Source: Myxococcota bacterium
GTDB lineage: Bacteria; Myxococcota_A; UBA9160; SZUA-336
Assembly (NCBI GenBank): GCA_040902485.1
Contig: JBBDXF010000017.1
Location: 75,216-139,215 of the forward strand
Direction: 5' to 3'
DNA: 64,000 nt
The notes beneath the pieces are model-generated. The model did not search any database. It was not told where the DNA came from and saw nothing but the letters and a program-made list of their open reading frames with translations. Positions 2,953-50,014 of this stretch are shown in pieces. The position numbers were made by a program, and so were the translations under genes. Numbering within the stretch: position 1 is the stretch's first letter; each line of letters opens with the position of its first letter.

Positions 2953-3313
2953 TCGTGCGCGTCGCGCGCGGCCGGGTTCCGGCCGCCCGTCGGCGTCTCG
3001 TCGCAGCGGCCCGCGCGGAGTCCGCGCCCGTCGCTTCAGGCTCGAGTGTGACGGCGATCGCACTCGCGCGAGCGCAGCTCCGTGTGCCGACGCCGCAGCC
3101 GCGTCGCGCGCGCAGGTCGCGCCGCTTCGCTCCCGAAGTCTGACGCCTTTCGGTGTCAGGGCGAAGCGCGACCGGGCCGCCGCGCCGGACGCGAGGCGAC
3201 GTCTGCGGCCTCCGCACGACACGTGTGACGCCTGGCACGCAGTACGCGTTCGCATCACACCGAAAGGCGTAGTCGGATGGGGAGCCGAGGTCCGGCCTGA
3301 ACGGGAGCGAGCC

Positions 3314-3910
3314 ATGAACCTCCTCGACAGAGTGCAATCGACCGGCACGCTCCGGCGTGCGCCGCGGGCGACCCAGCGGATTTCGAGCCTGGCCTGGCTG
3401 GTGACCTTCGTCCTGCTGGGCTCGAGCGGCAGCGCGCCCGGTGTCGCGTGGGCGGGCTCCAAGGAGCAGCTGCAGAGCCTCGACGAGCAGGTCCAGGAGA
3501 TCAAGTCGGACGTGCTCGGCATCGCCGCGGATCTCACGCGTCTCGAGGAGCGGCTGCTGTATCCGTCGGACACGCAGGTCGCGGTCTTCGTGTCGCTCGC
3601 CGAGGGCGAGACGTTCCTGGTCGACTCCGTGCAGATCCGGATCGACGGTGAGCCCGTCGCGCACCACATCTACAGCTTCAAGGAGCTCGAGGCCCTGAAG
3701 AAGGGCGGCGTGCAGCGGATCTACACCGGCAACGTCCGCACCGGCGAGCACCGGCTCGAGGTCTCCGTGGCCGGCAAGCGGCCGGGCGGCCAGGACGCGA
3801 CGGGCAGCCAGAGCTTCGGCTTCAGCAAGGACGTCGGGCCGAAACTCGTCGGTGTCACCCTGGCCGGAAGCGACTCGGGCGAGGTCGGCATCGAGCTCGG
3901 AGGTTTCTAG
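3314..3910 (+). CDS. DUF3450-like periplasmic coiled-coil protein (TonB-system accessory, TtpB-like)
   Basis: Starts at MNLLDRV inside ORF 2801..3910. It has a signal-like segment (LAWLVTFVLLGSSGSAPGVAWA) and a coiled-coil (KEQLQSLDEQVQEIKSDVLGIAADLTRLEERL). It lies first in an Exb/TonB cluster, which is the usual DUF3450 position in TonB2-type loci. Confidence 0.5.
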   Translation: MNLLDRVQSTGTLRRAPRATQRISSLAWLVTFVLLGSSGSAPGVAWAGSKEQLQSLDEQVQEIKSDVLGIAADLTRLEERLLYPSDTQVAVFVSLAEGETFLVDSVQIRIDGEPVAHHIYSFKELEALKKGGVQRIYTGNVRTGEHRLEVSVAGKRPGGQDATGSQSFGFSKDVGPKLVGVTLAGSDSGEVGIELGGF

Positions 3911-3913
3911 CTC

Positions 3914-5785
3914 TTGACCACGCGCCTGCTCAAACGGCTCGCGATCGTCGCGGCGGCACTCCTGCCGATCGGCTCCGCCAGCGGCGACGAGCTCGGCGAT
4001 CTCCACTTCGGCGAGGCGCTCTACTACGCGTACCAGGAGCACTGGTTCGAAGCCCTGCAGCGCCTCGACGCGGAGATCGCCCAGCACTACGGCGTCGACG
4101 AGCCCGAGCTCGACTCGCTGTACCCGCACATCAAGAGCGCGAACTTCGACGTCGGCGACTTCGAGCTGCGCTACCGCATGCACCATCGCGCGGGCCGCGC
4201 CATCCAGGCGGTGCTCGAGGCCGACGTCGAGGAGCCGGTGCGCAACGAGGCGGCGTTCCGCCTGGCGCGAATCCACTTCCAGAAGGGCCAGCCCGAGGCG
4301 GCCCTGCAGGTCCTGGAGAAGATCCGCGGAGAGGTCCCCGAGGACGTCCGCGACGAGATCGGGTTCCTGCGCGCGAACGTCCTGCTCGCGCTCGGCCGGC
4401 CTTCGGACGCGGTCGGCGTCCTGCAGCGCCTGCAGGACTCGGAAGACCTGCAGGGCTTCTCGGCCTACAACCTCGGCGTCGCGCTGCTGCAGGACGGCCG
4501 CCAGCTCGAGGCCGTCGAGCAGCTCGACCGCGCGGGTCGAGTGGAGAGCCGCGACCCGGCCGCGCTCGCGATCGTCGACAAGTCGAACCTGGTGCTCGGC
4601 ACGATGCTCTTCGAGGCGTCGGCGTTCGAGCCGGCCGAGCGCACGCTGGATCGTGTCCGGCTGGAGGGCCCGTTCTCGAACCAGGCGCTGTTGCGCGCGG
4701 GCTGGGCCGACGCTTCTGCGGAGAAGTTCGAGAGAGCGCTGGTGCCCTGGAGCATCCTCGCCGAGCGCGAAGCCACCGACGCCGCGGTGCAGGAGGCCAT
4801 GCTCGCGCTGCCGTACGCCTACAGCAAGCTGGGCGTGCAGGGCCGCGCGGCGAAGCTGTACGGTCGCGCCGTGGAGGCCTACGGCGAGGAGCTCGAGAAG
4901 CTCGACGCCTCCCTCGCGAGCATCAGCGGCGGCGCGTTCCTCGAAGCGCTCGCGCGCGAGGAGATCCGTCAGGACAAGGACTGGGTGATTCGCCTGCGCA
5001 GCCTGCCCGACGCGCCGGAGACGTTCTACCTGATGACGCTGCTGGCGTCGCACGAGTTCCAGAGCGGACTGCAGAACTACCTCGATCTCGAGGACATGCG
5101 CAAGAAGGTGGTCGCCTGGCGCACGAGCCTCGACGCGTTCGAGGACATCGTGCGCGTGCGCCGCGCGTACTACGAGCCGCTGCTGCCCGAGATCGATCGC
5201 GAGTTCCGCGCGCTCGACTCGCAGATCCGCCTGCGCGTGGAGCAGCGCGACCGCATCGAGCAGCGGCTCCAGCACATGCTGATCGCGCCAAGGCCGGACT
5301 ACCTGGCGACCGCGAACGAGCAGCGAGCGGCGGCGGAGATCGCGGCGCTCGCGGCGCGCCTCTCGGATTCGAGCGAAGCCGAGCGCGCCGCGCACTCGCT
5401 GCGCATCCGCCGCTTGAAGGGCGTGCTGACCTGGAGCCTGGAGCTGCGCTACCACGAGCGACTGACCGACGCGCACAAGCACCTGCGCGAGCTGAACGCG
5501 GACGTCGACAGGATGACGGCGCGCTACGACGCCTTCGTTCGGGCGCGTCAGGCCGCGACGCTCAGCTACACGGGCTACGACGACCCGATCGAGGAGACGC
5601 GCGCGCGCATCGCCGACGCGCTGGAACGGCTCGGCGTCCTGATGACTCGGCAGGGACGTCTGCTCGAGGTCGTGGCGACCCAGGAGCTGAAGCAGCGCCG
5701 GCTGCACCTGGAGGCGCAGCTCAACCAGGCGCGCTTCGCGTTTGCCGACAGCTACGACCGCGCCGCGAAGGCGCAGGTCAAGTGA
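3914..5785 (+). CDS. TPR-like/coiled-coil periplasmic protein (623 aa)
   Basis: Clean ORF with a signal peptide (MTTRLLKRLAIVAAALLPIGSASG) and helical repeat/TPR-like content. It sits 3 nt after the preceding gene. Confidence 0.6.
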   Translation: MTTRLLKRLAIVAAALLPIGSASGDELGDLHFGEALYYAYQEHWFEALQRLDAEIAQHYGVDEPELDSLYPHIKSANFDVGDFELRYRMHHRAGRAIQAVLEADVEEPVRNEAAFRLARIHFQKGQPEAALQVLEKIRGEVPEDVRDEIGFLRANVLLALGRPSDAVGVLQRLQDSEDLQGFSAYNLGVALLQDGRQLEAVEQLDRAGRVESRDPAALAIVDKSNLVLGTMLFEASAFEPAERTLDRVRLEGPFSNQALLRAGWADASAEKFERALVPWSILAEREATDAAVQEAMLALPYAYSKLGVQGRAAKLYGRAVEAYGEELEKLDASLASISGGAFLEALAREEIRQDKDWVIRLRSLPDAPETFYLMTLLASHEFQSGLQNYLDLEDMRKKVVAWRTSLDAFEDIVRVRRAYYEPLLPEIDREFRALDSQIRLRVEQRDRIEQRLQHMLIAPRPDYLATANEQRAAAEIAALAARLSDSSEAERAAHSLRIRRLKGVLTWSLELRYHERLTDAHKHLRELNADVDRMTARYDAFVRARQAATLSYTGYDDPIEETRARIADALERLGVLMTRQGRLLEVVATQELKQRRLHLEAQLNQARFAFADSYDRAAKAQVK

Positions 5786-5798
5786 GGTGCGGTACGCG

Positions 5799-8700
5799 AT
5801 GCTGCGCATTCGCACGGCTCTGCTGCTCGCACCGGCCGTCGCCGCCGCCTGCGCGGGCGATCCCGACCGGCGCACGCTCGCGGAGCTGCGCGCGCTGGAG
5901 CCCGACGTGACGGAGGTGCGGGTCGAGAACAGCCTCGATCAGGCGATGGTCGGGTACAAGAAGTTCCTCGAGCAGGCGCCGGAATCCGCGCTCACGCCCG
6001 AGGCGATGCGGCGGCTCGCCGACCTGAAGCTCGAGAAGGAGTACGGAATCCTCGGCGACGGCGAGATCGCCGAGCTTCCCGCGCCCGAGCCCGCGCCGCG
6101 CCTGGATCCCGCGCGCGAGCGTCCGCGCGCCGAGGCCCGGCACACGAGCGCGGAATCCGATCAGGCGTTCGAGCAGCGCGCTTCGGGCGAGGCGACGCTC
6201 TCGCGCGCGGGCGAAGTCGCCGCGCTCGAGCTGCCCGGCGGGAAGCCCGCGCCGTCCGCCGGCCCGCTCGAGGCGCTCGCGCTCTACGATCAGATCCTCA
6301 CCACCTATCCGGGCTACCCGCACAACGACGAGGTGCTGTACCAGAAGGCGCGCGCGCTCGACGAGCTGGGTCGGGTCGACGAGGCCGTCGTCGTGATCGA
6401 GCGGCTGACCGCCGAGTACCCGGACTCGCTCCACCTCGACGAGGTGCAGTTTCGGCGCGCGGAGTACTTCTTCACGCGGCGGAAGTACCTGCAGGCGGAA
6501 GAGGCCTACGCGGCGGTGCGCGCGGTGGGCGCCGGCTCCGAGTACTACGAGCTCGCCTTGTACAAGCTCGGCTGGACCTTCTACAAGCAGGAGCTGCACG
6601 ACGAGGCGCTGCACGAGTACGTCGCGCTGCTCGACTACAAGGTCTCCACCGGCTACGACTTCGATCAGGCGAAGGACGAGGACGAAGAACGGCGGATCGC
6701 CGACACCTATCGCGTCGTGAGTCTGTGCTTCTCGAACCTCGGCGGACCGGAGCTGGTCGAGAGCTACTTCACGGCGAACGGCACGCGCAGCTACGAAGAC
6801 CGCATCTACAGTCATCTGGCGGAGTTCTATCTCGAGAAGCTCCGCTACCAGGACGCGGCCGCGGCCTACGACGCGTTCGTGCGGCTCCACCCCCTGCACC
6901 GGTCCGCGCCGCGCTTCAGCATGCGCGTGGTCGAGATCTACGAGGCCGGCGGCTTTCCCAAGCTCGTGCTCGAGTCGCGCAAGACCTTCGCGGCCAGCTA
7001 CGGGTTGCAGTCCGAGTACTGGCGCCACTTCGACGTGCGCGAGTCGCCGCAGGTCCTGAGCTATCTGCGGACCAACCTGCAGGATCTGGCCGGTCACTAC
7101 CACGCGCTCTACCAGGATCCGGAGCGCACGGCCGAGAAGCCCGCGAGCTTCGACGAGGCGCTGCGCTGGTACCGCGCGTATCTCGAATCGTTCCCGGCGG
7201 ATCCCGAGACTCCGGCCACGCACTACCGACTCGCCGATCTCCAGCTCGAACATCGCGACTTCGGCGAGGCGGCGCGCGAGTACGAGCGCAGCGCCTACGA
7301 CTACCCCGAGCACGTGCAGGCCGCGGCCGCGGGCTACGCCGCGATCCACGCGCACCGCGAGCACCAGAAGCAGGTGGTCGGCGACGCGCAGACCGCCGTG
7401 ATTCGCGAGGCCGTCGCCAGCACGCTGCGTTTCGTGGACCGCTTCCCGGCCCACGAGCACGCCGCCGCGACGCTGGGCATCGCGGTGAACGACCTGTACG
7501 AGCTGAAGGAGTTCGCCCCGGCGATCGCCACCGCGCGCAAGCTGATCGACGACTATCCGGAGACGGACGTGGCGATCCGTCGCTCGGCCTGGGCGGTGGT
7601 CGCGAACGCCTCGCTCGACAGCGCCGACTTTCCGCAGGCGGAGCAGGCCTACGCGCGCGTGCTGGAGCTGATGCCCGCAGACGACGCGTCGCGCCAGGGG
7701 GTCATCGACAACCTGGCGGCGTCGATCTACAAGCAGGGCGAGCAGGCGAACGTCGCCGGCAACCACCGCGGCGCCGCCGATCACTTCCTGCGCGTCGCGC
7801 AGGCCGCGCCGGACTCGAAGATCCGTCCGCTGGCCGAGTACGATGCTGGCGCGGCGTTGATCGAGTTGCAGGACTGGGCCGGCGCCGCCGGTGTGCTGGA
7901 GTCGTTCCGGCAAGCGCATCCGGAGCACGAGCTACAGCGCGACGCCACCAAGCAGATGGCGTTCGTCCGCACGCAGGAGGGCAATCCGACCGGCGCCGCG
8001 GAGGAGTACGAACGCGTCGCGGCCGAGGCCAAGCAGCCGGAGGCGCGCCGCGAGGCGCTGCTCGTCGCCGGTGAGCTGTACGAGAGCGCGAAGGCGATGG
8101 ACCGCGCGTTGTCCGTCTATCTCGGCTACGTGAGTCAGTTCGCCGAGCCGGTCGAGACCGCCGTCGAGACCCGTTTCAAGATCGCCGAGATCCAGAAGGC
8201 GCGGAACGACGACGCCGGCTACCGGGAGCAGCTGCGCGAGATCGTGAAGATCGACGCGGCCGCGGGCGAGGCGGGCAGCGCGCGCATCCGCTTCCTCGCG
8301 GCCAGGTCCGCGCTGGTGCTGACGGAGGACTTCTACCGCCGCTTCGACGAGATCAAGCTGGTGCAGCCGCTCGAGCAGAACCTGCAGGAGAAGCAGCGGC
8401 GCATGGACGAGGCGCTCGCCGCGTTCGGCCGGCTCGTCGACTACGAGGTTGCCGAGGTGACGTCGGCGGCCACGTTCTACATGGCGGAGATCTACGCCGA
8501 GTTCAGCCGCGCGTTGCTCGGATCCGAGCGTCCGAACGATCTCGACCCCGCGGGTCTCGCGGAGTACGTGTCCGCGCTCGAAGGCGAGGCCTTCCCCTTC
8601 GAGGAGCGCGCGATCGAAGTGCACGAGAAGAACCTCGAGCTGCTGGCCGCGGGAATCTACAACCCGTGGATCGACAAGAGCCTCGGCAAGCTCGCGCTGC

Positions 8701-8945
8701 TGGTGCCGGGGCGCTACGCGAAGTTCGAGGCGAGCAGCGGTCTGATCGCGTCGCTCGACCGCTACGCGTACGAGGGGCCGAGGGCCCGCCCGGCCGCGGC
8801 GCCCGCGCCGGAGCCGATCGATCGCAGCACGTTCGGACCGGAGGACTCCGTTCCGGCCGCGCCCGACGAGTCCGAGTGGAACGAGCTGCCGGCGCTGGAG
8901 CCTCCCCAGGCGGCGAAGGAGGCGAGCGATGTCCAGGCGCCCTGA
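5799..8945 (+). CDS. large secreted TPR-repeat protein (~1049 aa)
   Basis: ORF 5742..8945. The likely start is MLRIRTALLLAPAVAAACAGD, preceded by a gagg RBS. It carries many TPR-like repeats (ALYKLGWTFYKQELHDEALHEY..., GQAEQAYARVLEL...). Confidence 0.65.
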   Translation: MLRIRTALLLAPAVAAACAGDPDRRTLAELRALEPDVTEVRVENSLDQAMVGYKKFLEQAPESALTPEAMRRLADLKLEKEYGILGDGEIAELPAPEPAPRLDPARERPRAEARHTSAESDQAFEQRASGEATLSRAGEVAALELPGGKPAPSAGPLEALALYDQILTTYPGYPHNDEVLYQKARALDELGRVDEAVVVIERLTAEYPDSLHLDEVQFRRAEYFFTRRKYLQAEEAYAAVRAVGAGSEYYELALYKLGWTFYKQELHDEALHEYVALLDYKVSTGYDFDQAKDEDEERRIADTYRVVSLCFSNLGGPELVESYFTANGTRSYEDRIYSHLAEFYLEKLRYQDAAAAYDAFVRLHPLHRSAPRFSMRVVEIYEAGGFPKLVLESRKTFAASYGLQSEYWRHFDVRESPQVLSYLRTNLQDLAGHYHALYQDPERTAEKPASFDEALRWYRAYLESFPADPETPATHYRLADLQLEHRDFGEAAREYERSAYDYPEHVQAAAAGYAAIHAHREHQKQVVGDAQTAVIREAVASTLRFVDRFPAHEHAAATLGIAVNDLYELKEFAPAIATARKLIDDYPETDVAIRRSAWAVVANASLDSADFPQAEQAYARVLELMPADDASRQGVIDNLAASIYKQGEQANVAGNHRGAADHFLRVAQAAPDSKIRPLAEYDAGAALIELQDWAGAAGVLESFRQAHPEHELQRDATKQMAFVRTQEGNPTGAAEEYERVAAEAKQPEARREALLVAGELYESAKAMDRALSVYLGYVSQFAEPVETAVETRFKIAEIQKARNDDAGYREQLREIVKIDAAAGEAGSARIRFLAARSALVLTEDFYRRFDEIKLVQPLEQNLQEKQRRMDEALAAFGRLVDYEVAEVTSAATFYMAEIYAEFSRALLGSERPNDLDPAGLAEYVSALEGEAFPFEERAIEVHEKNLELLAAGIYNPWIDKSLGKLALLVPGRYAKFEASSGLIASLDRYAYEGPRARPAAAPAPEPIDRSTFGPEDSVPAAPDESEWNELPALEPPQAAKEASDVQAP

Positions 8946-9561
8946 GCCTTCGCGTCGGTCGGCGTCGGCACGCGGCGCGTGGCTGCTCGCGGCGGTGCTC
9001 GCGCTGTCGGCTTGCAGCAGCACGGGCTCGACGTCGAAGACCGAGATCCTGGACGAGGGCGGCTTCGCCATCACCGAGAAGGTGCGGGCCGGCGCGGAGG
9101 TGCGCGCAGACTTCGACGGCGCGTTGCGCCTGCTCGAGCAGAAGCGATACGCCGAGGGCATCGCGCTGCTGGTCAAGGTGACGGAAGCGGCGCCCGAGCT
9201 GACCGCGGCGCACATCGACCTCGCGCTCGCCTACGGCGAGCTCGACGATCTGGAGCGCGCGGAGGCCAGCCTGGAGCGCGCGCTCGAGCTCAGCCCGCGC
9301 CATCCCGTGGTGCACAACGAGCTCGGCATCGTGTACCGCAAGACGGGGCGCTTCGAAGAGGCGCGCAAGAGCTACCAGCGCGCGCTCGAGCTGCATCCGG
9401 ACTTCCACTTCGCGCGCAAGAACCTCGCGATCCTCTGCGACGTGTATCTGCGCGACACGACCTGCGCGCTGAATCACTACGCGCTGTACGCGGCCGCGGT
9501 GCCGGACGACGAAGCCGCGGCGATCTGGATCGCCGATCTACGCAACCGGATCGGCCGGTAG
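8929..9561 (+). CDS. TPR-repeat lipoprotein
   Basis: Lipoprotein signal AWLLAAVLALSACSSTG. TPR motifs include ALRLLEQKRYAEGIALLVKV, ELGIVYRKTGRFEEARKSYQRALEL and PDFHFARKNLAIL. It overlaps the upstream gene by ~17 nt. Confidence 0.6.
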   Translation: MSRRPEPSRRSASARGAWLLAAVLALSACSSTGSTSKTEILDEGGFAITEKVRAGAEVRADFDGALRLLEQKRYAEGIALLVKVTEAAPELTAAHIDLALAYGELDDLERAEASLERALELSPRHPVVHNELGIVYRKTGRFEEARKSYQRALELHPDFHFARKNLAILCDVYLRDTTCALNHYALYAAAVPDDEAAAIWIADLRNRIGR

Positions 9562-9569
9562 GAGAGAGC

Positions 9570-9869
9570 ATGAGACCCACACTCGTCTGCTGCACGGTTC
9601 TGCTGCTGGCCTCGGGCGCCGCCCGGAGCGAGGACACCGCCCCCAAGGGCGACAAGCTGCTCTCGGGCATGTCGATCGTCGGCAACGACGAAGCACCCAA
9701 GTCCCTGGTGATCGTGCCCTGGAAGAGCTCGGGGCTCGGCGACACGCTCGACGTGTGGTCGGCCCTCGACGACGGGCGCCAGCCCGTGGACCGGGACGTG
9801 TTCATGAGGGAGCTCGACTACTACCAGATTCGAGCGGCGTCCGGAGCGTCGGGCGCAGGTCAGCGATAG
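9570..9869 (+). CDS. small secreted protein (99 aa), unknown function
   Basis: An aggagag RBS precedes the ATG. Signal peptide MRPTLVCCTVLLLASGAARSE. It is embedded between the TPR lipoprotein gene and exbB. Confidence 0.45.
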   Translation: MRPTLVCCTVLLLASGAARSEDTAPKGDKLLSGMSIVGNDEAPKSLVIVPWKSSGLGDTLDVWSALDDGRQPVDRDVFMRELDYYQIRAASGASGAGQR

Positions 9870-9905
9870 CGCGCGAAGCAACTCACAAGTTCGGGAGGAT
9901 ACGTC

Positions 9906-10586
9906 ATGGAGTTCGTGTACATGGTCGTCCATTTCTTCGAGGCGGGCGGCCCGTTCATGTTTCCGATTCTGTTGGTGGCCGCCGCGGGCGCCGCGATCGC
10001 GATCGAGCGCTACATCACGCTCAGCTTGGTGAAGGCCAAGAACCAGAACGTCTGGAGCCAGGTTCAGCCGGCGCTGGTCAGCGGTGACTTCGACAAGGCG
10101 CGCGAGATGACCCGCGAGGGCGACTCGGCGATCGCTCAGCTGCTGAGCATCGGCCTGGCCCGGCAGGGCGCCGTGCGGCGGCGCGAGGACATCGAGATCG
10201 CGATGGACGAGGGCATGATCGAGATCACGCCTCAGCTCGAGAAGCGCACCCACTACCTGGCGACCTTCGCGAATCTCGCGACGCTGCTCGGTCTGTTGGG
10301 CACGGTCAGCGGTCTGATCCACGCCTTCGCCGCGGTCGCGACGGCGAACCCCGTGGACAAGGCGAACCTGCTCTCGGCGAGCATCTCGGAGGCCATGAAC
10401 TGCACGGCCTTCGGGCTGATGACCGCGGTGCCGATCGTGTTCGCCCACGCGTTCCTGCAGACCAAGACCAGCGAGGTGGTGGCGAGCCTCGAGATGGCCT
10501 TCGTCAAATTCCTGAACGTGCTCACCGACCGTCAGGTGGCGCAGACGCAGAGCCGCCGCGCGCTCGCGCAGTCGGGGCAGGAGTAG
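9906..10586 (+). CDS. exbB: MotA/TolQ/ExbB proton-channel protein
   Basis: Three TM segments and ExbB/TolQ-family sequence (FPILLVAAAGAAIAIERYITL..., TFANLATLLGLLGTVSGLIHAF, GLMTAVPIVFAHAFL). Confidence 0.85.
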   Translation: MEFVYMVVHFFEAGGPFMFPILLVAAAGAAIAIERYITLSLVKAKNQNVWSQVQPALVSGDFDKAREMTREGDSAIAQLLSIGLARQGAVRRREDIEIAMDEGMIEITPQLEKRTHYLATFANLATLLGLLGTVSGLIHAFAAVATANPVDKANLLSASISEAMNCTAFGLMTAVPIVFAHAFLQTKTSEVVASLEMAFVKFLNVLTDRQVAQTQSRRALAQSGQE

Positions 10587-10595
10587 GGCACGCCC

Positions 10596-11138
10596 ATGCG
10601 CCGCAGACACACGCGACCGCAACGCAAGCCGACCGAGCTGATGCTCGTGCCGATGATCGACATCTTCACGGTGCTGGTGACGTTCTTGCTGATGACCGCG
10701 GTGTTCTCGCGCATCACGATCCTCGAGCTCGATCTGCCGAGCTCGGCCAGCCAGGGCGTCTCCTCGCCGGTGTTCCGGCTCGAGGTGATCGTCCGCAAGG
10801 AAGGGCTCGAGCTCACCAACGGGACGCAGCGGATCGCCGTGCTGCCGAACCAGAACGGCGCGTACGCCTTGAAGACGCTGTCCGAGCTTGCGCTGTCGCT
10901 GAAGCGCGACTACCCGAACGCGACCGCCGCGTCCGTTCTGCTGGAGCCCGAGATCGAGTACGACCACCTGATCCAGGTGATGGACGCCATCCGCACGGCG
11001 GAGGTCCCGGCCGCGCAGGAGACGAAGCCGGAGGCTGGGGATGCCAACGCTCCGCCAGCCGAGGTCCAGAAGGCCGAGGACTCGAAGCCCGTCCGACTGG
11101 CGCTGTTCACCGACATCGCCGTGGGAGACGCACCATGA
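10596..11138 (+). CDS. exbD: ExbD/TolR biopolymer transport protein (copy 1, with Pro/Ala-rich C-terminal tail)
   Basis: N-terminus KPTELMLVPMIDIFTVLVTFLLMTAVF is the canonical ExbD/TolR TM segment. The periplasmic domain includes YDHLIQVMDAIRTAEV. Confidence 0.8.
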   Translation: MRRRHTRPQRKPTELMLVPMIDIFTVLVTFLLMTAVFSRITILELDLPSSASQGVSSPVFRLEVIVRKEGLELTNGTQRIAVLPNQNGAYALKTLSELALSLKRDYPNATAASVLLEPEIEYDHLIQVMDAIRTAEVPAAQETKPEAGDANAPPAEVQKAEDSKPVRLALFTDIAVGDAP

Positions 11139-11635
11139 GCATGATGAAGCGCGCGCGCCGCACGGCGACGCACCATCTGCGGCGCTCGACGGAAGTCGAG
11201 CTCAACCTGATTCCGCTGATCGACATCATGTCGGTCATGGTGGCCTTCCTGCTGGTGTACTCCGCGAACGTGGAGGTGATCCAGAACAGCCAGGGCGTCC
11301 AGATTCCGCAGTCGATCGCGCAGGAGCAGCCGAAGCAGTCCGTGGTCGTGATGATCACGAAGGAGCACTTGTTCGTTCAGGGCGAGCTGGTCATGACCGT
11401 CGCGGAGATCCGCGAGGCGAAGTCGCCGCTGATCGATCGACTGAGCGCGGTGCTCGAGCGGCCGCTGCTGGTGACCGACGGCGTCGCGGAGGATCTGGCG
11501 TTGCGCGAGATCACCGTGCTCGCCGACAAGGCCCTGCCGTACGAAGTCGTGAAGCGCGTGATGTCGACCTGCACCCGCGAGGGCTACGGCCGCATCTCCC
11601 TCGCGGTGCTCGAGAAAGAGACCACTCCGATCTAG
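11135..11635 (+). CDS. exbD: ExbD/TolR biopolymer transport protein (copy 2)
   Basis: ELNLIPLIDIMSVMVAFLLVYSA is an ExbD TM segment, and ALPYEVVKRVMSTCTREGYGRISLAV is ExbD-like. The ATGA start/stop overlap with copy 1 indicates translational coupling. Confidence 0.8.
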   Translation: MSMMKRARRTATHHLRRSTEVELNLIPLIDIMSVMVAFLLVYSANVEVIQNSQGVQIPQSIAQEQPKQSVVVMITKEHLFVQGELVMTVAEIREAKSPLIDRLSAVLERPLLVTDGVAEDLALREITVLADKALPYEVVKRVMSTCTREGYGRISLAVLEKETTPI

Positions 11636-11640
11636 GGGAT

Positions 11641-13026
11641 TTGGTGGAAGCTGTCCTCTCCCTCGACGAAAAGAGACTTCATTCGCAGCTCGAGCAGGCT
11701 CACGAGCGGCTGGACGGACTCGTGCGCAAGCTGCGCGCCGTCGACCGCGAGCTCGACAGCCTGTCCGGCGAGCGCGAGCAGCATCGCCTGCTGCACGAGG
11801 TGTGCGAGGGTCTTGCGCGGCTCGGCGAGCTCGGCGGAGCGAGCCTGTTCTGGGGCGAAGGCGCCGTCGACTTCGAAGTCTCCAACCGGATCCTCGGCGC
11901 GCGCGGCCGGATCGATGCCTTCGACAAGCGCATCGGCGCGATCGAGGAGCGGCGCGAAGCGCTCGTCGAGCAGCTCGAGCAGGAGCAGGACGGCGCCGAG
12001 TTCCTCGAGGACGAGCTGCGCGAGGCGGAGGAGGCCGAGGAGCAGCGCAGACACGAATGGACGATCGAGCGCGAGCCCGACGTGCTTCCGGTCCGCGAGC
12101 TCGTCATGCCCTGGACCCGGGGCGGCGAGGAGGACCAGCGTTTCCGCAAGTCGCTGGCCTCGTCGCTGCTGGCCGCGCTTCTGCTCGCCGTGCTGCATCC
12201 GCTGATCGAGCTGCCGCTGCCCGAGCTCGAGCCGCCGATCGAGGTGCCGGAGCGTCTGACGCACCTGATTCCGGAGGCGCCGCGCACGCCACCGCCCGTC
12301 GCGCAGCGGGAGCCAAAGCCGGAGAAGCTGAAGCCGGAGCCGCGCGACAAGTCACTCGTCGCCGAGCAGCCGACAGCGAAGCGCGGACCGGAGAACGCGC
12401 CGGAGCAGGCCCCGGGCGCGAAGGGAATCCTCGCCTTCCGGGAGCGCTTCTCGGGCCTCGCGGCCAACCAGCCGGTCGCCAACCTCGGACTCGAGGCGCG
12501 GATCAACCACGCGGGCGAGGTCGCGAGCGGAGCGCCGGAGCGATCGCTCGTGACGAGGCAGGCGCCGGGCTCGAGCGGCGGCGTGAACCTGTCCGCGCTC
12601 AGTCGTGGCACCGGCGGCGGCGGGCAGCAGCTCGAGGGCGTCGAGGTCGCGCGCGCGACCAGCGCGATCGCGGCCATCGGCGACGGCGCCGGCGGCTCGG
12701 GCCGGCCGGTCGGCGGCGACGGCCCGGGTCTCGCGCGCACGGACGAGGAGATCCAGATCGTCTTCGACCGCCACAAGGCGGCGCTCTACCGCCTCTACAA
12801 CCGCGAGCTGCGCAGCGACCCGACGCTGCAGGGACAGATGGTCCTGCGCCTGCGCATCGAGCCCGACGGCAGCGTCTCGCTGTGCGTGCTGCACGGCAGC
12901 GACATGGACGCGCCGCAGCTCTCCGCGCAGGTCGTCGAGCGCGTGAAGACGTTCGACTTCGGCGCGAAGGATGGAATCCCCGCGATCACGATCCTGTACC
13001 CGATCGATTTCCTGCCGGCGACTTGA
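11641..13026 (+). CDS. tonB: TonB-family energy transducer with long N-terminal coiled-coil extension
   Basis: An in-frame TTG/GTG lies directly after the exbD stop. The first ~155 aa form a coiled-coil (LDEKRLHSQLEQAHERLDGLVRKLRAVDRELDSL...). A TM segment with the S..H motif follows (LASSLLAALLLAVLHPLI). Then come a Pro-rich spacer (PEAPRTPPPVAQREPKPEKLKPEPRDK) and a C-terminal TonB_C-like domain (LRIEPDGSVSLCVLHGSDMDAPQLSAQVVERVKTFDFG...ITILYPIDF). ORF-track entry 11041..13026 is the same frame. Confidence 0.7.
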   Translation: MVEAVLSLDEKRLHSQLEQAHERLDGLVRKLRAVDRELDSLSGEREQHRLLHEVCEGLARLGELGGASLFWGEGAVDFEVSNRILGARGRIDAFDKRIGAIEERREALVEQLEQEQDGAEFLEDELREAEEAEEQRRHEWTIEREPDVLPVRELVMPWTRGGEEDQRFRKSLASSLLAALLLAVLHPLIELPLPELEPPIEVPERLTHLIPEAPRTPPPVAQREPKPEKLKPEPRDKSLVAEQPTAKRGPENAPEQAPGAKGILAFRERFSGLAANQPVANLGLEARINHAGEVASGAPERSLVTRQAPGSSGGVNLSALSRGTGGGGQQLEGVEVARATSAIAAIGDGAGGSGRPVGGDGPGLARTDEEIQIVFDRHKAALYRLYNRELRSDPTLQGQMVLRLRIEPDGSVSLCVLHGSDMDAPQLSAQVVERVKTFDFGAKDGIPAITILYPIDFLPAT

Positions 13027-13257
13027 GCCGGCTGGGGAGTGCTGGAGAGACACGGACCACGAACTAGAAGCGATTCAGACAAAGGCAAACCCACCGAAAG
13101 GTGGCGACGCAAAGTCACCGGTCTACAGGGTCGTCGGGCCCCACGACAGCGGGACCGCCAGAATCGAGCCCGGCCGTCGGGCTGCACGGCTTCCTCTGGC
13201 AAAAGCGTTCGCCGCCATTCGTCGCCACGAGGAAGAGTGAGTCGAAGGTTCCTGAAC

Positions 13258-18138: not shown

Positions 18139-18142
18139 GCCG

Positions 18143-21100
18143 ATGCTGAAGCACAGCCGTCTCTCGCTCGTGTGCGCGCTGCTCGTGGCGCCGGCCGTTC
18201 AGGCCCAAGTCAGTCAGGTCGCGTCACCCAGCGAGTCGGCCGAGAAGCATCTCTCGACCGAGGATCCGTTCATGTTCTGGGGCATCGATCCGACGCTGCT
18301 CGAGCGCGAGGCCGGCGACCGCCTGGTGCAGCGCGAGGTCGTGGGCGAGCAGGCCAAGACCGTCAAGCTCAAGAACGTGATCCCGCCGATTCACTTCGAG
18401 TCCGGCGTGGCGAACATCCCCACCAGCTACATCGAGCGACTGCGCCGGTTGCTCGACGGCATGCGCCAGCTCGAGAACGTGCGCCTGCACCTGATCGGCC
18501 ACGCCGACGACCAGCCGCTGTCGGACCGGCTCAGCGGGGTGTACGGCGACAACGCCGGGCTCTCGCGCGAGCGGGCCGGCGAGGTCGGCGAGTTCATCCA
18601 GACCGCGCTCGCGCTTCCGCCCGACGCGATCTCGTTCGAGTGGGCGGGCGAGCGCCAGCCGATCGCGACCAACACCACCGCCGAGGGCCGCGCCCGGAAC
18701 CGTCGCGTCGAGGTCGAGGTCTGGTACGACGAGAGCGAGAGCAAGCTCGGCCTCGAAGAGGTCGTCGTGCCCGCGGACATCAAGCGCGTGAAGGTGTGTC
18801 GCACGGAGACGGTCTGCAAGCTGCGCTACCTGGACGGGCACGCGCGCCGCGCGCGGGTCAGGAACCTGATCGCGCCGCTCCACTACAGCGACGAGACGGT
18901 GGGCGTTCCGCCCGAGTTCGTGCGCCAGATCGGGCAGGCGCTGCACAACCTCGCCGGCAAGCAGAACGTCACGGTGAAGTTCATCGGCTACAGCGACGAC
19001 CTGCCGCTGACGGGTCGCTCCGGAAAGATCTACGGCACGCACCTCGCGCTGTCGAAGGCCCGGGCGCACCGCGTCGCGCTCGCGATCCAGGACGCGCTCG
19101 ATTTGCCGAGCTCGGCGCTCGCCAGCGACGGGCGCGGCGCGACCCAGCCGCTCGCCTCCAACGAGACCGCGCGCGGCCGCACGCTGAACCGGCGCGTCGA
19201 GGTCGAGTTCTGGCACGACGACCCGCTGCAGGAGCTGCCGGACGAGCCGCAGCCGTGTCCGGAGGCGCCCGCCGCCGAGGTGGTGACGAAGGTCTACGAT
19301 CCGACTTTCGGCGCGCTGCCGGCGCTGCAGATCGAGGCCGGCCAGGTCGTGATCCCGCCGGGCTACAGCGACGCGCTGCGCCGCGCCTTGGACGAGGTCC
19401 ACGACAAGGCGCGCGTGCGGCTGCGCTTCACCGGCCATACCCGCAACGAGCGCCTCGATCGGCGAACCGCGCTGGTGTACGGCGACGACATCGGCCTGTC
19501 CGCCGCCCGCGCGCGCCGCGCGATGGAGAAGATCAAGACGGAGCTCGGGCTCAGCGACGCGCAGGCCGAGCACGAGGGACGCGGCTACGTGCACTCGAAC
19601 GACGTCGTGAACACCGGCTTCCTGCCGGGCGAGACCTCGGACGTGGCGGTCGAGGTCGTTTACGACGAGCTCGCGGTGCTCGACGAGAACGAGGGCGTGG
19701 ACGTCACGCCGCTCACGCGCGAGCTCCGGCCCAAGAACCCGCTGGGCTTGAACCTGATGCGCATCACCGTCGACGGCGAGCCGATCGACGACCCGGGGCG
19801 CAGCTCCGCCGACGTCCAGCGCTGCACGGACGTGGCGCTCGAGCGGGCCAACATCCGCTTCGGGTTCGACAACCTCGAGTCCGAGCGCCGGCTCAGCGTG
19901 AGCTCGAGCCCGAGCTCGATCCGGGTTCCGCTGGCGGCCGCGGACGACGACCCGGTGCCGCCGGTCCGCTTCCGCATGTACAGCAACTACGCGGCCTACA
20001 TCGAGCGCTCGGAGGTGCGGATCTTCGCGCCCGAGCAGTCGCTCGAGGCCGAGCCGCTGGTCGTGATCGGCGTCGAGCCCGACGGCTTCGCGGAGTGGCA
20101 GCCGGCGCTGGAGCTGTTCGCGGCGCCGCAGCGCGAGCTTCGCTACCTGCTGCGCGCCTACGGCGTCGAGGGCCAGTTCGACGAGACCGAGCCGCGGCCG
20201 CTCTGGATGCTCCACGAGGACGCGCCCCGGGCCCAGCCGAGCGGCCCGCCGCAGCCCGACGAGTCACTCGCCGGCTACGGCGAGAGCGCGCTGGCGGTGA
20301 AGAACATTCCGCTCGGCAGCGGCACGGTGAAGATCGAAGGCGAGGGCGTTCCGCGGGAGCACACCGTGTGGCTGGCCGGCGAGCAGGTGCCCGTGGACGC
20401 GAACGGCAACTTCGTCGCCGAGACGATCCTGCCCTCGGGCACGCACACGGTCGAGGTGGCGGTGCTGGACGCGGAGGGCAACGGCGACCTGTTCCTGCGC
20501 GACCTCGAGTTCGAGGGCCGCGACTGGTTCTACGTGGCGATGTCGGATCTGACGCTCTCGACCAACAGCCCGAGCTCGGAGGAGAAGGCGCTCGCCGGCG
20601 AGAACGCGCCCTACGAGATCGACTCCAACGCGGACGGCCGGTTCGCGTTCTTCGTCGACGGCAAGCTCACCGAGACCTGGGGTTTGACCGCGAGCGCGGA
20701 CACGCGCGAGGGCCCGGTGGACCAGCTCTTCAGCAACTTCATGGACAAGTCGCCGGAGTCGCTGTTCCGGCGCATCGACCCCGACTACTTCTACCCGACC
20801 TACGGCGACGACGGCACCGTGGAGGAGATGGCGCCCACGCAGGGCAAGTTCTTCGCCAAGCTCTCGAACCACGACAACCACGCGCTGTGGGGCAACTTCA
20901 AGGTCGGCTACGTGGCGAACGAGCTCGCGCCGGTCGACCGCGCGCTGTACGGCGGCAATCTGCACTACCAGTCCGACACGACCACGAGCTTCGGCGAGCA
21001 GCGCATGCAGCTCGACGGCTTCGCGGCCGAGCCGGGCACCGTGCCGAGCCGCGAGGAGTTCCGCGCGACCGGCGGCTCGGTCTACTTCCTGCGGCGCCAG

Positions 21101-23209
21101 GACATCCTGACCGGATCCGATCGTGTCCGGATCGAGACACGCGACCCGGACTCGGGCCTGGTGACGGGCGTGGTGCACCTGCGCCCGGGACTGGACTACG
21201 ACTTCGACTACTTCCAGGGCCGCGTGCTGCTCTCGGAGCCGCTCACCTCGACCGCCGGCGGCAGCGGCCTGTTGGTGCGCAGCGGCGGCGTGGCCGGCGA
21301 CGAGGCCTGGCTGGTGGTGCAGTACGAGTTCACGCCCGGCTTCGAGGAGATGAGCACGGTGGCCGCGGGCGGTCAGGGTCACTACTGGCTCGCCGACTTC
21401 GCGAAGCTCGGGCTGACCGCGAACAAGGACACCGAGGGCGACGGCGACAGCAACCTGTACGGCGTGGACCTCACGCTGCGGCAGAGCGCCGAGTCGTGGC
21501 TCAAGGTCCAGACCGGCAAGCGCGACGGCATGCTGTCCACCTGGCTGAGCTCCGACGACGGCGGCTTCGATTTCGCGGGCAGCGGCGGGCTCGGCCTGGT
21601 CGACGCCAACGCCGACGCGTACCGCGCCGACCTCAGCATCGGCATGGGGGATCTGTTCTCGGGCTCGAGCGGGCGAGTGACTCTGTACGCGCAGAACCTC
21701 GACGCGGGCTACTCGACGGCCAGCCTGCTCACGCTCACCGATACCCAGCAGTTCGGCGGCGCGCTGATGCTGCCGCTGACGGACCGGCTGCGCCTGGCCG
21801 CGAAGGCGGACTCGCGCACCCAGACCGACGGGCTCGACACGCAGGCCGGCGAGATCGACCTCGGCTATCAGCTCACCGACCGCTGGAGCTTGGGCGCAGG
21901 CGTCCGCCACGACAACCGCGAGGACAACTCGCTGATCGTGCCGGTGACACAGGAAGAGGGCGGGCGCACCGACGCCGCGCTGCAGCTGGGCTACGACTCG
22001 ACGGCCGCCTGGCGCAGCTACGGTTTCGTGCAGAGTACTTTGGCGGCGGACGGCAACCGCGAGGAGAACGGCCGCGTCGGCGTCGGCGGCGCCTATCGTG
22101 TGACCGATCGGCTGGTCGTCGACGCCGAAGCCTCGGCCGGCCAGCTCGGCCCCGGCGGCAAGCTCGGCACGAGCTACCAGGCCACCGACCGCACCACCGT
22201 GTACGTGAACTACGGGCTCGAGGACGAGCGCGGAATCGACGGCCTGTACGGCCGCCGCAGCAACCTGATCGCCGGCGCCCGCACGCGCCTGTCGCAGAGC
22301 TCGAGCATCTACCTCGAGAACCGCTACCAGACGACCGACACGCGCAGCGGTCTGACCCACGCCACGGGCGTGAACCTGACGCCCACCGACCGCTGGAACC
22401 TCGGCAGCACCGTCGACGTGGGCACGCTCGTCGACCGCGAGACCGGCGCCGAGACCAGGCGCAAGGCGGGCGGCCTGCGCATCGGCTACGGCTTCGAGAA
22501 GGTCCAGCTCGCGAGCGGCTTCGAGTACCGCCTCGACGACACCGAGCAGCTCGACGGCAGCTGGGCGGACCGCACGACCTACCTGTTCCGGAACAACGGC
22601 AAGTACCAGGTGACTCCGGACTGGCGCTTCGTGCTGAAGCTGAACCACGCCCTCAGCGACAGCTCACTCGGCGAGTTCTACGACGGCGGCTACACCGAGG
22701 GCGTGCTCGGCTGGGCGTACCGCCCGGTCGCGCACGACCGCCTCAACGTGCTGGCCAAGTACACCTACTTCTACAACGTGCCGACGCTCGACCAGTTCAA
22801 CCTGCGCGAGGTCGCGGATCAGTTCCTGCAACGCAGCCACATCGCGTCGCTCGACCTGACCTACGACCTGACTTCGAGGCTGACGATCGGCGGAAAGTAC
22901 GCCTACCGCATGGGCTCGGTGAGCCTCGATCGCGTCGACACCGACTTCTTCGACAACGACGCCCACCTGTACGTGTTGCACACGGACTGGCGCTTCATGG
23001 CGGACTGGGAGGCGACGATGGAGCTGCGCCTGCTCGACCTGCCGAGCCTCTCGGACAGCCGCAGCGGCGCGCTGCTCGGCGTCTACCGCCATGTGGGCGA
23101 CCACATGAAGGTGGGAGTCGGCTACAACTTCACCGACTTCTCCGACGACCTCACTGACCTCTCCTACGACCACCACGGGTTCTTCATCAACTTCAACATC
23201 CGGATGTAG
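18143..23209 (+). CDS. 1688-aa outer-membrane protein with three N-terminal OmpA-like peptidoglycan-binding domains and a large C-terminal putative beta-barrel
   Basis: Signal peptide MLKHSRLSLVCALLVAPAVQAQ. Three OmpA_C-like units are present (NVRLHLIGHADDQPLS...ARNRRVEVEVW; VTVKFIGYSDDLPLTG...TLNRRVEVEFW; RVRLRFTGHTRNERLD...). The C-terminal ~1100 aa show an alternating hydrophobic beta-strand pattern, ending ...GVGYNFTDFSDDLTDLSYDHHGFFINFNIRM. It begins 4 nt after the DUF11 gene. Confidence 0.75.
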   Translation: MLKHSRLSLVCALLVAPAVQAQVSQVASPSESAEKHLSTEDPFMFWGIDPTLLEREAGDRLVQREVVGEQAKTVKLKNVIPPIHFESGVANIPTSYIERLRRLLDGMRQLENVRLHLIGHADDQPLSDRLSGVYGDNAGLSRERAGEVGEFIQTALALPPDAISFEWAGERQPIATNTTAEGRARNRRVEVEVWYDESESKLGLEEVVVPADIKRVKVCRTETVCKLRYLDGHARRARVRNLIAPLHYSDETVGVPPEFVRQIGQALHNLAGKQNVTVKFIGYSDDLPLTGRSGKIYGTHLALSKARAHRVALAIQDALDLPSSALASDGRGATQPLASNETARGRTLNRRVEVEFWHDDPLQELPDEPQPCPEAPAAEVVTKVYDPTFGALPALQIEAGQVVIPPGYSDALRRALDEVHDKARVRLRFTGHTRNERLDRRTALVYGDDIGLSAARARRAMEKIKTELGLSDAQAEHEGRGYVHSNDVVNTGFLPGETSDVAVEVVYDELAVLDENEGVDVTPLTRELRPKNPLGLNLMRITVDGEPIDDPGRSSADVQRCTDVALERANIRFGFDNLESERRLSVSSSPSSIRVPLAAADDDPVPPVRFRMYSNYAAYIERSEVRIFAPEQSLEAEPLVVIGVEPDGFAEWQPALELFAAPQRELRYLLRAYGVEGQFDETEPRPLWMLHEDAPRAQPSGPPQPDESLAGYGESALAVKNIPLGSGTVKIEGEGVPREHTVWLAGEQVPVDANGNFVAETILPSGTHTVEVAVLDAEGNGDLFLRDLEFEGRDWFYVAMSDLTLSTNSPSSEEKALAGENAPYEIDSNADGRFAFFVDGKLTETWGLTASADTREGPVDQLFSNFMDKSPESLFRRIDPDYFYPTYGDDGTVEEMAPTQGKFFAKLSNHDNHALWGNFKVGYVANELAPVDRALYGGNLHYQSDTTTSFGEQRMQLDGFAAEPGTVPSREEFRATGGSVYFLRRQDILTGSDRVRIETRDPDSGLVTGVVHLRPGLDYDFDYFQGRVLLSEPLTSTAGGSGLLVRSGGVAGDEAWLVVQYEFTPGFEEMSTVAAGGQGHYWLADFAKLGLTANKDTEGDGDSNLYGVDLTLRQSAESWLKVQTGKRDGMLSTWLSSDDGGFDFAGSGGLGLVDANADAYRADLSIGMGDLFSGSSGRVTLYAQNLDAGYSTASLLTLTDTQQFGGALMLPLTDRLRLAAKADSRTQTDGLDTQAGEIDLGYQLTDRWSLGAGVRHDNREDNSLIVPVTQEEGGRTDAALQLGYDSTAAWRSYGFVQSTLAADGNREENGRVGVGGAYRVTDRLVVDAEASAGQLGPGGKLGTSYQATDRTTVYVNYGLEDERGIDGLYGRRSNLIAGARTRLSQSSSIYLENRYQTTDTRSGLTHATGVNLTPTDRWNLGSTVDVGTLVDRETGAETRRKAGGLRIGYGFEKVQLASGFEYRLDDTEQLDGSWADRTTYLFRNNGKYQVTPDWRFVLKLNHALSDSSLGEFYDGGYTEGVLGWAYRPVAHDRLNVLAKYTYFYNVPTLDQFNLREVADQFLQRSHIASLDLTYDLTSRLTIGGKYAYRMGSVSLDRVDTDFFDNDAHLYVLHTDWRFMADWEATMELRLLDLPSLSDSRSGALLGVYRHVGDHMKVGVGYNFTDFSDDLTDLSYDHHGFFINFNIRM

Positions 23210-42959: not shown

Positions 42960-43044
42960 CGAGCGGTTTTCTCGCGCTCGTGCAGACGCCATGCCGCAAC
43001 GCTGCGATCTCGAGCGGCGGCGTTCTCCAGCTGAGGATGGGCGT

Positions 43045-49937: not shown

Positions 49938-50014
49938 TGGCGTCCCCGATGCGATTCGAACGCATGACCTGCTGCTTAGGAGGCAGCCGCTCTATCCATC
50001 TGAGCTACGGGGAC
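49938..50014 (-). tRNA. tRNA-Arg (anticodon CCT), 77 nt with encoded CCA
   Basis: Reverse complement is GTCCCCGTAGCTCAGATGGATAGAGCGGCTGCCTCCTAAGCAGCAGGTCATGCGTTCGAATCGCATCGGGGACGCCA. It folds as a cloverleaf with a 7-bp acceptor stem, D-arm GCTC/GAGC, anticodon stem GCTGC/GCAGC with loop CTCCTAA, and T-arm ATGCG/TTCGAAT/CGCAT. Confidence 0.85.

Follow-up and report, generated by a model that had tools for sequence, protein, structure and literature searches.

A conserved bacterial locus links a motor block that appears homologous to the Agl/Glt core complex with a c-di-GMP-I riboswitch, a predicted fibrillar adhesin and a giant outer-membrane barrel protein

What does a proton-driven motor of the ExbB/ExbD type do in a stretch of DNA that encodes no TonB-dependent receptor, and do the genes for a giant adhesin and a large outer-membrane protein directly behind it belong to the same machine? 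The question is raised by 64,000 nucleotides (nt) of DNA from a Myxococcota bacterium (GenBank assembly GCA_040902485.1, contig JBBDXF010000017.1, positions 75,216 to 139,215 of the forward strand), hereafter the window. An earlier note on this DNA had described a cluster of twelve co-directional genes with tiny junctions, in which a motor block precedes the genes of a DUF11 adhesin and an OmpA-domain barrel protein. It had likened this cluster to the Agl-Glt gliding machinery of Myxococcus, and its null hypothesis was a plain TonB2/Ttp-type energizer with unrelated neighbours. We find that eight genes of the block appear to be homologous to the ancestral core of the Agl/Glt machines, and that a riboswitch for cyclic di-guanosine monophosphate (c-di-GMP), the adhesin gene and the barrel gene accompany it in related loci of at least three phyla. 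We consider it rather probable that all these elements form one c-di-GMP-regulated, envelope-spanning machine, which would display and anchor the adhesin and be coupled to a TolQR-type proton motor.

The coding frames of the window, which has a G+C content of ~70%, were called from third-position G+C. By this frame analysis the locus consists of 11 genes, g1 to g11, all on the plus strand and together spanning positions 3314-23209 (Table 1). The earlier count of twelve was thus one too high, whereas the common direction and the tiny junctions stand: from one gene to the next the distance ranges from -17 to +36 nt throughout the module, with the exception of the gap between g9 and g10. As claimed before, the window contains no gene for a TonB-dependent receptor.

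For the block g2-g9 a published counterpart exists. In Gamma- and Betaproteobacteria, Geobacter and Fibrobacter, the genes gltC, gltD, gltE, aglR, aglQ, aglS and gltG lie together with one extra gene in one cluster, a set termed the core complex by Luciano et al. (2011, PMC3169522). These authors proposed that the gliding (Glt) and the spore-coat (Nfs) machines of Myxococcus descend from this complex, whose own function was unknown; later papers still give the function as unknown and speculate about transport or secretion. In Methylibium (Table S3 of PMC3169522) the cluster reads GltC (634 amino acids, aa), GltD (941 aa), GltE (243 aa), a gap in the locus tags, AglR (217 aa), AglQ, AglS (163 aa) and GltG (371 aa). 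The order is identical in the clusters of Cellvibrio, Marinobacter, Saccharophagus, Shewanella and Teredinibacter (TERTU_1849-1856), and in each gammaproteobacterial cluster of that table the locus tags are likewise interrupted between the homologues of GltE and AglR. The genes g2-g9 match this complex one-to-one, with the sizes given in Table 1 and the extra gene included. By size and position g2 fits the homologues of MXAN_2541 (GltC; 550-692 aa), g3 fits GltD homologues of 933-1016 aa, and g4 fits GltE by position and size (all Table S3). In fact, all eight genes are alike in order, size and domain type, down to the small gene between the GltE and AglR positions. Because order, sizes and domains agree, g2-g9 appear to be homologous to the ancestral Agl/Glt core, and the resemblance pointed out earlier thus appears to be a genuine one. 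Two differences were observed: the GltG-like protein is longer here (460 aa compared to 321-371 aa, and 535 aa in Thioalkalivibrio) and has a cytoplasmic coiled coil, and the conserved upstream gene g1 is an addition of this subfamily.

The locus is not the Myxococcus gliding machine itself. Pfam and NCBIfam searches of it revealed no product of the genes specific to gliding, i.e. gltA, B, F, H, I, J, K and cglB; the sole GltJ match (E 0.014) concerns the shared C-terminal domain. The equivalog cut-offs of NCBIfam are missed as well, by g4, which matches the GltE model NF033758 weakly (32 bits, cut-off 225), and in the cases of GltG (26 vs 650) and GltJ.

How constant the genes downstream of this block are was seen in related loci. 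A scan with aligned g9 homologues, covering one genome per species, yielded at least 575 stretches with a relative, and the best 80 loci were retained. They originate from Myxococcota metagenome-assembled genomes (MAGs), Steroidobacteraceae (among them the cultured Povalibacter uvarum), Woeseiaceae (among them the cultured Lentisalinibacter) and Acidobacteriota. Searching these 80 loci with the window proteins (tblastn), we found the order g1 to g9 at every locus with sufficient upstream DNA; directly downstream of g9 a g10 homologue and then a g11 homologue follow wherever the DNA suffices. The order g1-g11 is kept in Myxococcota, Steroidobacteraceae, Woeseiaceae and Acidobacteriota, i.e. in at least three phyla, which answers in the affirmative the neighbourhood question of the earlier note, namely whether DUF11 and OmpA-barrel genes go together with the motor block elsewhere. 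In none of the related loci inspected does the core block stand beside a TonB-dependent receptor; such a neighbour would have told against the linkage. Inspection of the open reading frames (ORFs) of 12 loci revealed no inserted genes; the DUF11 protein varies in length from 1358 to more than 3300 aa, the OmpA protein from ~1600 to 1850 aa. The flanks are not conserved: this concerns the LamG gene upstream and the dehydrogenase gene downstream, and the genes past g11 vary by genome. Since the order is conserved inside and the flanking genes vary, the extent of the module as delimited by synteny is g1-g11.

The junctions inside the module point in the same direction. In 5 of 39 loci g10 and g11 form a single ORF; as a Pro/Gly linker takes the place of the g11 signal peptide there, we regard the fusion as genuine. 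A database protein of 3297 aa (P0363) has the same fused architecture. In the remaining 34 loci the two genes are mostly separated by -16 to +30 nt. Furthermore, in three loci that lack the riboswitch described below at this place, g9 and the DUF11 gene overlap or are at most 31 nt apart; one of the three (L043) retains a riboswitch ahead of g1. A literature search for a link of the core complex to DUF11, OmpA or a riboswitch gave nothing relevant, subscription-only papers being outside the search, and in the comparison with the published core complex, which did not extend to the classical clusters, these constant partners are absent from the searchable papers. The core complex is already known; its constant link to a riboswitch, a CLIPPER (DUF11) adhesin and a giant barrel protein with three OmpA-like domains has no precedent in the literature searched.

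The gap at 13027-13257, noted before as an interruption between two blocks, does exist but is not empty. It holds a c-di-GMP-I riboswitch aptamer, which matches Rfam family RF01051 with 71.6 bits (gathering score 35, E 3.7e-14) over model positions 1-87 of 87. In all seven other, diverse loci scanned with it, Rfam finds a riboswitch in the same place (66-83 bits; one is assigned to RF03167). Surveying the loci with a covariance model made from ten of the copies, we found that 71 of the 79 loci with sufficient downstream DNA carry the riboswitch after the g9 and before the g10 homologue; 16 of 58 loci have another copy, which precedes g1 and thereby the entire operon. Two more loci, which were reached through g11 homologues, carry the riboswitch as well. 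Compensatory changes support the fold: across 88 copies 97.7% of the cells are paired and both sides vary in 11 pairs, values that 500 shuffles never attain, and slid controls collapse. Examples of the copy upstream of g1 lie at about 894-991 in L026 and at 1397-1483 in L032, and these copies are mostly from Gammaproteobacteria where the taxon label is informative. Ahead of g1 in the window itself a sensitive Rfam scan of positions 2700-3500 found none. The copies at 11497-11584 in L054 and at about 894-991 in L026 are assigned to the c-di-GMP-I-GGC variant RF03167, not to RF01051, and copies of this type may differ in ligand specificity. A c-di-GMP-II-GAG candidate on the minus strand of the window (13287-13331, 22 bits vs 40) was taken as a chance match.

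Downstream of the aptamer, a conserved anti-Shine-Dalgarno element (CUUCCUC, ~13190-13196) is followed by a Shine-Dalgarno element (GAGGAAG, 13229-13235) ahead of a GTG codon at 13237. In the compared loci the start codon mostly follows the aptamer at a distance of 72-76 nt. Because of this spacing, and of the positively charged N-region that the signal peptide then has, GTG 13237 is more likely to be the start of g10 than ATG 13258. With the aptamer enforced, the anti-Shine-Dalgarno element pairs with the Shine-Dalgarno element (GGAACGAGG-like) and masks it in 27 of 31 minimum free energy folds. Without constraint, 13 of the 31 minimum free energy folds pair the anti-Shine-Dalgarno element with the 3' strand of the aptamer instead, and the Shine-Dalgarno element is still largely paired. 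The layout of the leader therefore leans towards a translational OFF switch, with a modest computed difference. A plus-strand terminator-like site or sigma-70-like promoter, which might have decoupled the two blocks, was not found between 12700 and 13500 by a scan that is weak for DNA of ~70% G+C.

The protein encoded behind the riboswitch, g10, is the giant DUF11 protein named before (PF01345, 141 bits over 5 stretches). It has a Sec signal peptide and an N-terminal head of the choice-of-anchor K type (NF038131, 67.2 vs 30), followed by a stalk in which Pfam recognizes CLIPPER/DUF11, DUF7507, DUF7619, DUF7927, DUF7933 and SdrD_B; an isopeptide-type domain is also detected (TIGR04226, 46.3 vs 30). 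The family DUF11 has been renamed CLIPPER, and its members have a CnaA-like fold, are stabilised by isopeptide bonds and build the stalks of fibrillar adhesins (PMC12617251). The features of that class, i.e. signal peptide, head domain and tandem CLIPPER/isopeptide-type Ig-like repeats, are all present in g10, which we thus predict to be a fibrillar adhesin with an isopeptide-type stalk. Its first ~200 aa are common to only 22-42% of the loci, with at least three head types, and the remainder is conserved. The alignment shows strong conservation of a C-terminal domain of ~110 aa, whose profile has no match in the PDB and no detectable relative. An OmpA-like nature of this domain was considered and rejected (hhalign against the g11 OmpA domains, probability 5.9%, non-significant).

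The second partner, g11, carries a signal peptide, three OmpA-like domains at ~aa 75-510 and a beta-sandwich middle. Two of the OmpA-like domains are found with PF00691 (79.3 bits vs 27.2, 2 stretches) and the third when hhalign compares domain 1 with domain 3 (probability 99%, E 7e-18), so that the triple arrangement noted earlier holds; the domains are predicted to bind peptidoglycan. The outer-membrane barrel that had been claimed is indicated as well: AlphaFold2 models ~30-32 long antiparallel strands in the C-terminal ~600 aa (~aa 1075-1688), at a predicted local distance difference test score (pLDDT) of 70-85. Since Foldseek returned generic large barrels only (LptD, TonB-dependent transporters, MtrB and FimD, at low TM-scores), no specific barrel family is assigned. 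Pfam finds no plug, TonB_dep_Rec or autotransporter domain in g11, and no Pfam or NCBIfam model covers the barrel region. Across the listed relatives, homologues of g11 are at least 58% identical; like g9, g11 is 100% identical to a protein of a Myxococcota MAG.

The module formed by middle and barrel is far more widespread, with 1014 representatives at 50% identity (E<=1e-30). Often it makes up the C-terminus of proteins of 3000-6889 aa, with fused passengers of up to ~5,700 aa. One of them, P0404 (4674 aa; L085, 10001-24025), combines an SdrD_B/SpaA/DUF11 stalk with a g11-type barrel and has no OmpA match at E<=1e-5. Because P0404 has no core complex beside it, the barrel module, on the evidence of its sequence relatives, is best seen as an anchor predicted to serve giant adhesins in general, with just one branch of its family tied to the core complex. 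P0404 and its relatives look like an undescribed, autotransporter-like class of giant adhesins. Like type V autotransporters, the fused relatives have an N-terminal passenger and a C-terminal barrel in one polypeptide; in contrast to them, ~30 strands follow after OmpA and beta-sandwich domains, compared to 12-16 strands in type V (in type Va 12, directly after the passenger). Presumably there is also a likeness to the Lap system, in which a giant adhesin is held at an outer-membrane channel under c-di-GMP control. LapA, however, is controlled by LapD/LapG proteolysis instead of a riboswitch, and no type I secretion system is present here.

Pfam confirms the motor that had been proposed, one ExbB and two ExbD proteins: g6 matches MotA_ExbB (PF01618, 88.7 bits), with TolQ as its nearest solved structures, and g7 and g8 match ExbD (PF02472, 54.7 and 67.7 bits). 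The locus thus encodes one TolQ/ExbB-type channel and two TolR/ExbD paralogues. The transmembrane Asp of g8-type proteins is invariant (76 of 76 loci). The corresponding g7-type residue is Asp in 13 loci, the window among them, and Asn in 57. As the g8 Asp is invariant while g7 mostly has Asn, the stator plug is suggested to be an asymmetric heterodimer with a single functional Asp in most species. In L083 (1461-4795), a locus on a long-read contig of 3 Mb, the genes of the motor and of the GltG-like protein appear in the gene calls as fusions or pieces, probably through assembly frameshift errors.

Also in agreement with the earlier description, Pfam detects TPR matches in three proteins, g2, g3 and g4, those of g4 being strong. 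The repeats of g3 match TPR_6, TPR_16 and YfiO in Pfam and, in NCBIfam, tol_pal_ybgF with 97 bits. Homologues of g3 number more than 4200, and the neighbourhoods reached through them gave little, namely one contig end and one stand-alone GltD-like gene. The latter, in L002 (CP070734.1, a genome of 3.67 Mb), encodes a TPR protein 69% identical to g3. Neither g1 nor g5 matches a Pfam or NCBIfam family; by tblastn a g1 homologue is found in the same place at every locus with sufficient upstream DNA, and g5 is kept in all loci. A DUF3450-like protein had also been listed for the block; no match was obtained even at E<=10, and we dropped the label.

The transducer g9 had been called a TonB_C protein. 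As a Pfam assignment this does not stand (PF03544, 15.2 vs 24.6 bits; TIGR01352, 15.6 vs 27.1), and the g9 sequence has no match in the PDB. The TonB-like fold, on the other hand, does: AlphaFold2 models the C-terminal domain as alpha-beta-beta-alpha-beta, and its best Foldseek matches are the C-terminal domains of HasB, TonB, TolA and FusB. Moreover, g9 passes NF033768 (AgmX/PglI C-terminal domain; 55.9 bits, cut-off 40), a domain that the gliding proteins GltJ and GltG possess, and is 100% identical to an NCBI entry named AgmX/PglI C-terminal domain protein. The long cytoplasmic N-terminus that had been noticed is modelled as a three-helix coiled coil (aa 2-139, pLDDT >90), followed by a transmembrane helix (aa 163-185) and a long disordered Pro-rich linker. 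All GltG-type features, i.e. a single transmembrane helix, a Pro-rich region and a TonB-like C-terminal domain, are therefore found in g9.

Table 1. Positions of the genes and leader elements of the module in the window
Feature	Position	Strand	Description
g1	3314..3910	+	198 aa, exported or anchored; coiled coil and beta-rich domain
g2	3914..5785	+	623-aa periplasmic protein with TPR and long helices; GltC position
g3	5799..8945	+	1048-aa TPR protein with lipoprotein-like signal peptide and YbgF/BamD-like repeats; GltD position
g4	8929..9561	+	210-aa TPR lipoprotein, lipobox LSAC; GltE position
g5	9570..9869	+	99-aa exported protein; position of the 'additional gene' of the core complex
g6	9906..10586	+	226 aa, TolQ/ExbB-type proton channel; AglR position
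g7	10596..11138	+	180 aa, TolR/ExbD paralogue 1; AglQ position
g8	11135..11635	+	166 aa, TolR/ExbD paralogue 2; AglS position
g9	11641..13026	+	460-aa GltG-like transducer; AgmX/PglI-type C-terminal domain
c-di-GMP-I (GEMM-I) riboswitch aptamer	13074..13162	+	in the g9-g10 leader; RF01051
Expression platform	13163..13236	+	hairpin, anti-Shine-Dalgarno element and Shine-Dalgarno element
g10	13237 (or 13258)..18138	+	predicted fibrillar adhesin
g11	18143..23209	+	1688-aa outer-membrane protein; start codon 4 nt past the g10 stop codon

If g1-g11 and the riboswitch are one machine, as we think rather probable, it might work as follows. Proton flow through a TolQ-like pentamer of g6 and a TolR-like heterodimer of g7 and g8 would be turned into movement of g9, whose periplasmic arm terminates in the TonB/TolA-like domain. 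The GltD-like g3, the GltE-like g4 and the GltC-like g2, together with g1 and g5, would form a periplasmic scaffold reaching the outer membrane, following the Myxococcus model, where outer-membrane barrels hold the adhesin and GltC is predicted to connect these barrels with the periplasmic complex (PMC11761067). In the outer membrane g11 would serve as platform and pore, fixed to the peptidoglycan via its three OmpA-like domains. The C-terminal domain of g10 would be periplasmic and, because both are contiguous in one polypeptide in the fused loci, is placed beside the OmpA domains of g11; the stalk would cross the outer membrane, with the variable head outside. The riboswitch would gate translation of g10-g11, and the amounts of adhesin and anchor would track c-di-GMP, since it fronts these two genes and elsewhere the whole operon as well. 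Least certain is what the motor contributes: loading or tensioning of the complex of adhesin and anchor, help with its maturation or export, and its movement are all conceivable. By analogy, the module might work like a minimal Agl-Glt focal-adhesion machine. A more far-reaching version sees in the locus the complete, hitherto unrecognised ancestral core machine, from which gliding would have evolved. Its motor would apply force to, or gate the export of, a split autotransporter-like giant adhesin seated in a barrel of ~30 strands that is anchored to peptidoglycan, and the riboswitch, possibly an OFF switch, would set the amount of adhesin; this version we put forward only tentatively.

Several points weigh against the reading as one machine. 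Its support is wholly comparative or predicted, and the structure models are of moderate confidence only (mean pLDDT 55-60). No TonB-box-like partner of g9 was identified. The GltD-like gene of CP070734.1 has no motor or core genes beside it; two-component regulators adjoin. Neither a riboswitch nor, within 10 kb, a core complex accompanies the solitary P0404, and for this reason the motor is possibly dispensable for display; the barrel module may present its passenger without it. Finally, the 80 loci were picked by g9 similarity and so sample one subfamily of the core complex, the Cellvibrio, Marinobacter and Shewanella clusters being left out, and the taxon labels of the MAGs are partly unreliable.

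How do other explanations fare? The motor could drive the adhesin-barrel complex along the cell body, as in Agl-Glt or in the GldLM/SprB gliding of Bacteroidota. The homology of the block to the Agl/Glt core, an adhesin stalk of the mechanically stabilised type, a conserved cytoplasmic coiled coil of g9 that could link to the cytoskeleton, and a leader that leans OFF and so fits expression at low c-di-GMP would all suit such surface gliding. The logic shared with Myxococcus Agl-Glt/Nfs is indeed the same, i.e. proton motor, TonB-like transducer, TPR scaffold, outer-membrane barrels and surface adhesin. However, the genes gltA, B, F, H, I, J, K and cglB, which gliding needs according to Luciano et al., are not in the locus, and MglA, AglZ and MreB are not nearby. 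Where the Myxococcus machine has GltA/B/H/K, GltF/I/J and a VWA lipoprotein such as CglB, the locus has a fibrillar adhesin and a single giant barrel equipped with peptidoglycan-binding domains, and three such domains on g11 speak for a fixed rather than a travelling anchor; gliding is therefore unlikely in our view. The likeness to the Bacteroidota type IX secretion (T9SS) and gliding system (GldLM, SprA, SprB, PorE), with its 5:2-type motor, huge barrel, giant adhesin and TPR/OmpA component, we take to be an analogy only. Matches to PorW/PorE are weak and at the level of TPR, apart from generic TPR and OmpA domains the components are not homologous, and g10 lacks a C-terminal sorting domain of the T9SS type. 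A Tol-Pal-like role, in which the core would insert or stabilise the barrel with its links to peptidoglycan, or tether the outer membrane where adhesins sit, with no force on the adhesin and no export of it, has a similarly small chance of being correct. With Tol-Pal the module shares a TolQ/TolR-like stator (g6 being nearest TolQ), a TolA/TonB-like domain, YbgF/CpoB-like and BamD-like repeats in g3, and Pal-like OmpA domains on the outer-membrane partner g11, and a stand-alone adhesin-barrel fusion without an adjoining motor also fits. It differs from Tol-Pal in lacking TolB and a Pal lipoprotein, and in its second TolR, its three large TPR proteins and its adhesin partner; the module scores all stay far below the Tol equivalog cut-offs of NCBIfam. 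Such a role would leave unexplained both the GltG-type transducer with its cytoplasmic domain and the fact that one adhesin/barrel pair and a shared riboswitch accompany the core strictly one-to-one.

Could the module serve nutrient uptake, with g11 as an outsized energised transporter and g10 capturing a polymeric nutrient? The TonB-like C-terminal domain of g9, the TonB-dependent transporters among the Foldseek matches of the g11 barrel and a g10 head that varies like substrate-binding domains might suggest so. Those matches are generic to large barrels and have low TM-scores, though; g11 lacks plug and TonB_dep_Rec domains, no inner-membrane or periplasmic uptake genes or catabolic genes are conserved with the module, and c-di-GMP control together with an isopeptide stalk is typical of adhesins, which makes uptake quite improbable. 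Least credible of all is the null hypothesis of an ordinary TonB2/Ttp-type Exb/TonB energizer beside unrelated surface-protein genes. It can draw on the generic Pfam labels ExbB and ExbD of the motor genes, but a TtpC-like second channel protein and a DUF3450 protein are absent (one MotA_ExbB only; DUF3450 searched to E<=10). In addition, the blocks are joined by shared riboswitches and tight junctions, the synteny extends across phyla, and protein identities of 45-60% across loci argue against one recently transferred island. Because of the core-complex order, the downstream synteny, the g10-g11 fusions and the direct abutment of g9 and DUF11 genes in some loci, we reject it.

Other genes of the window were noted in passing. 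Just upstream of the module (1396-2952, +) lies the gene of a Laminin_G_3 protein with a long Pro/Thr-rich linker, which is also there in the contig of the closest relative and not in the 80 more distant loci. Downstream, positions 25310-33901 (-) encode a protein of 2863 aa with GT2, glucoamylase-like and two GH94 domains, i.e. the architecture of a cyclic beta-1,2-glucan synthase; this gene is not conserved beside the module in other loci. Further on there are a 958-aa PP-binding/AMP-binding/acyltransferase fusion (40083-42959, +), which resembles acyl-ACP (acyl carrier protein) synthetase/lysophospholipid acyltransferase, an NfeD-FloA (flotillin-like) gene pair (42916-45433, +) and a P-type cation ATPase (45977-48634). 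A tRNA gene at 49941-50014 (-) is, besides the riboswitch, the sole Rfam match in the window at the gathering threshold.

Taken together, the locus bears on a question that has stood since 2011, as function and cargo of the core complex have been unknown since then; the constant partners found here make this question testable, and cultured carriers exist. The analysis also defines a large family of giant outer-membrane barrels that would anchor adhesins, and the known targets of c-di-GMP-I riboswitches gain one that is conserved across phyla. Among the carriers are lineages that abound in marine sediment and soil. If the more far-reaching version is true, an energised adhesion organelle would occur widely in Gammaproteobacteria, Myxococcota and Acidobacteriota of sediment and soil, and the focal-adhesion gliding machine of Myxococcus would derive from such an organelle.

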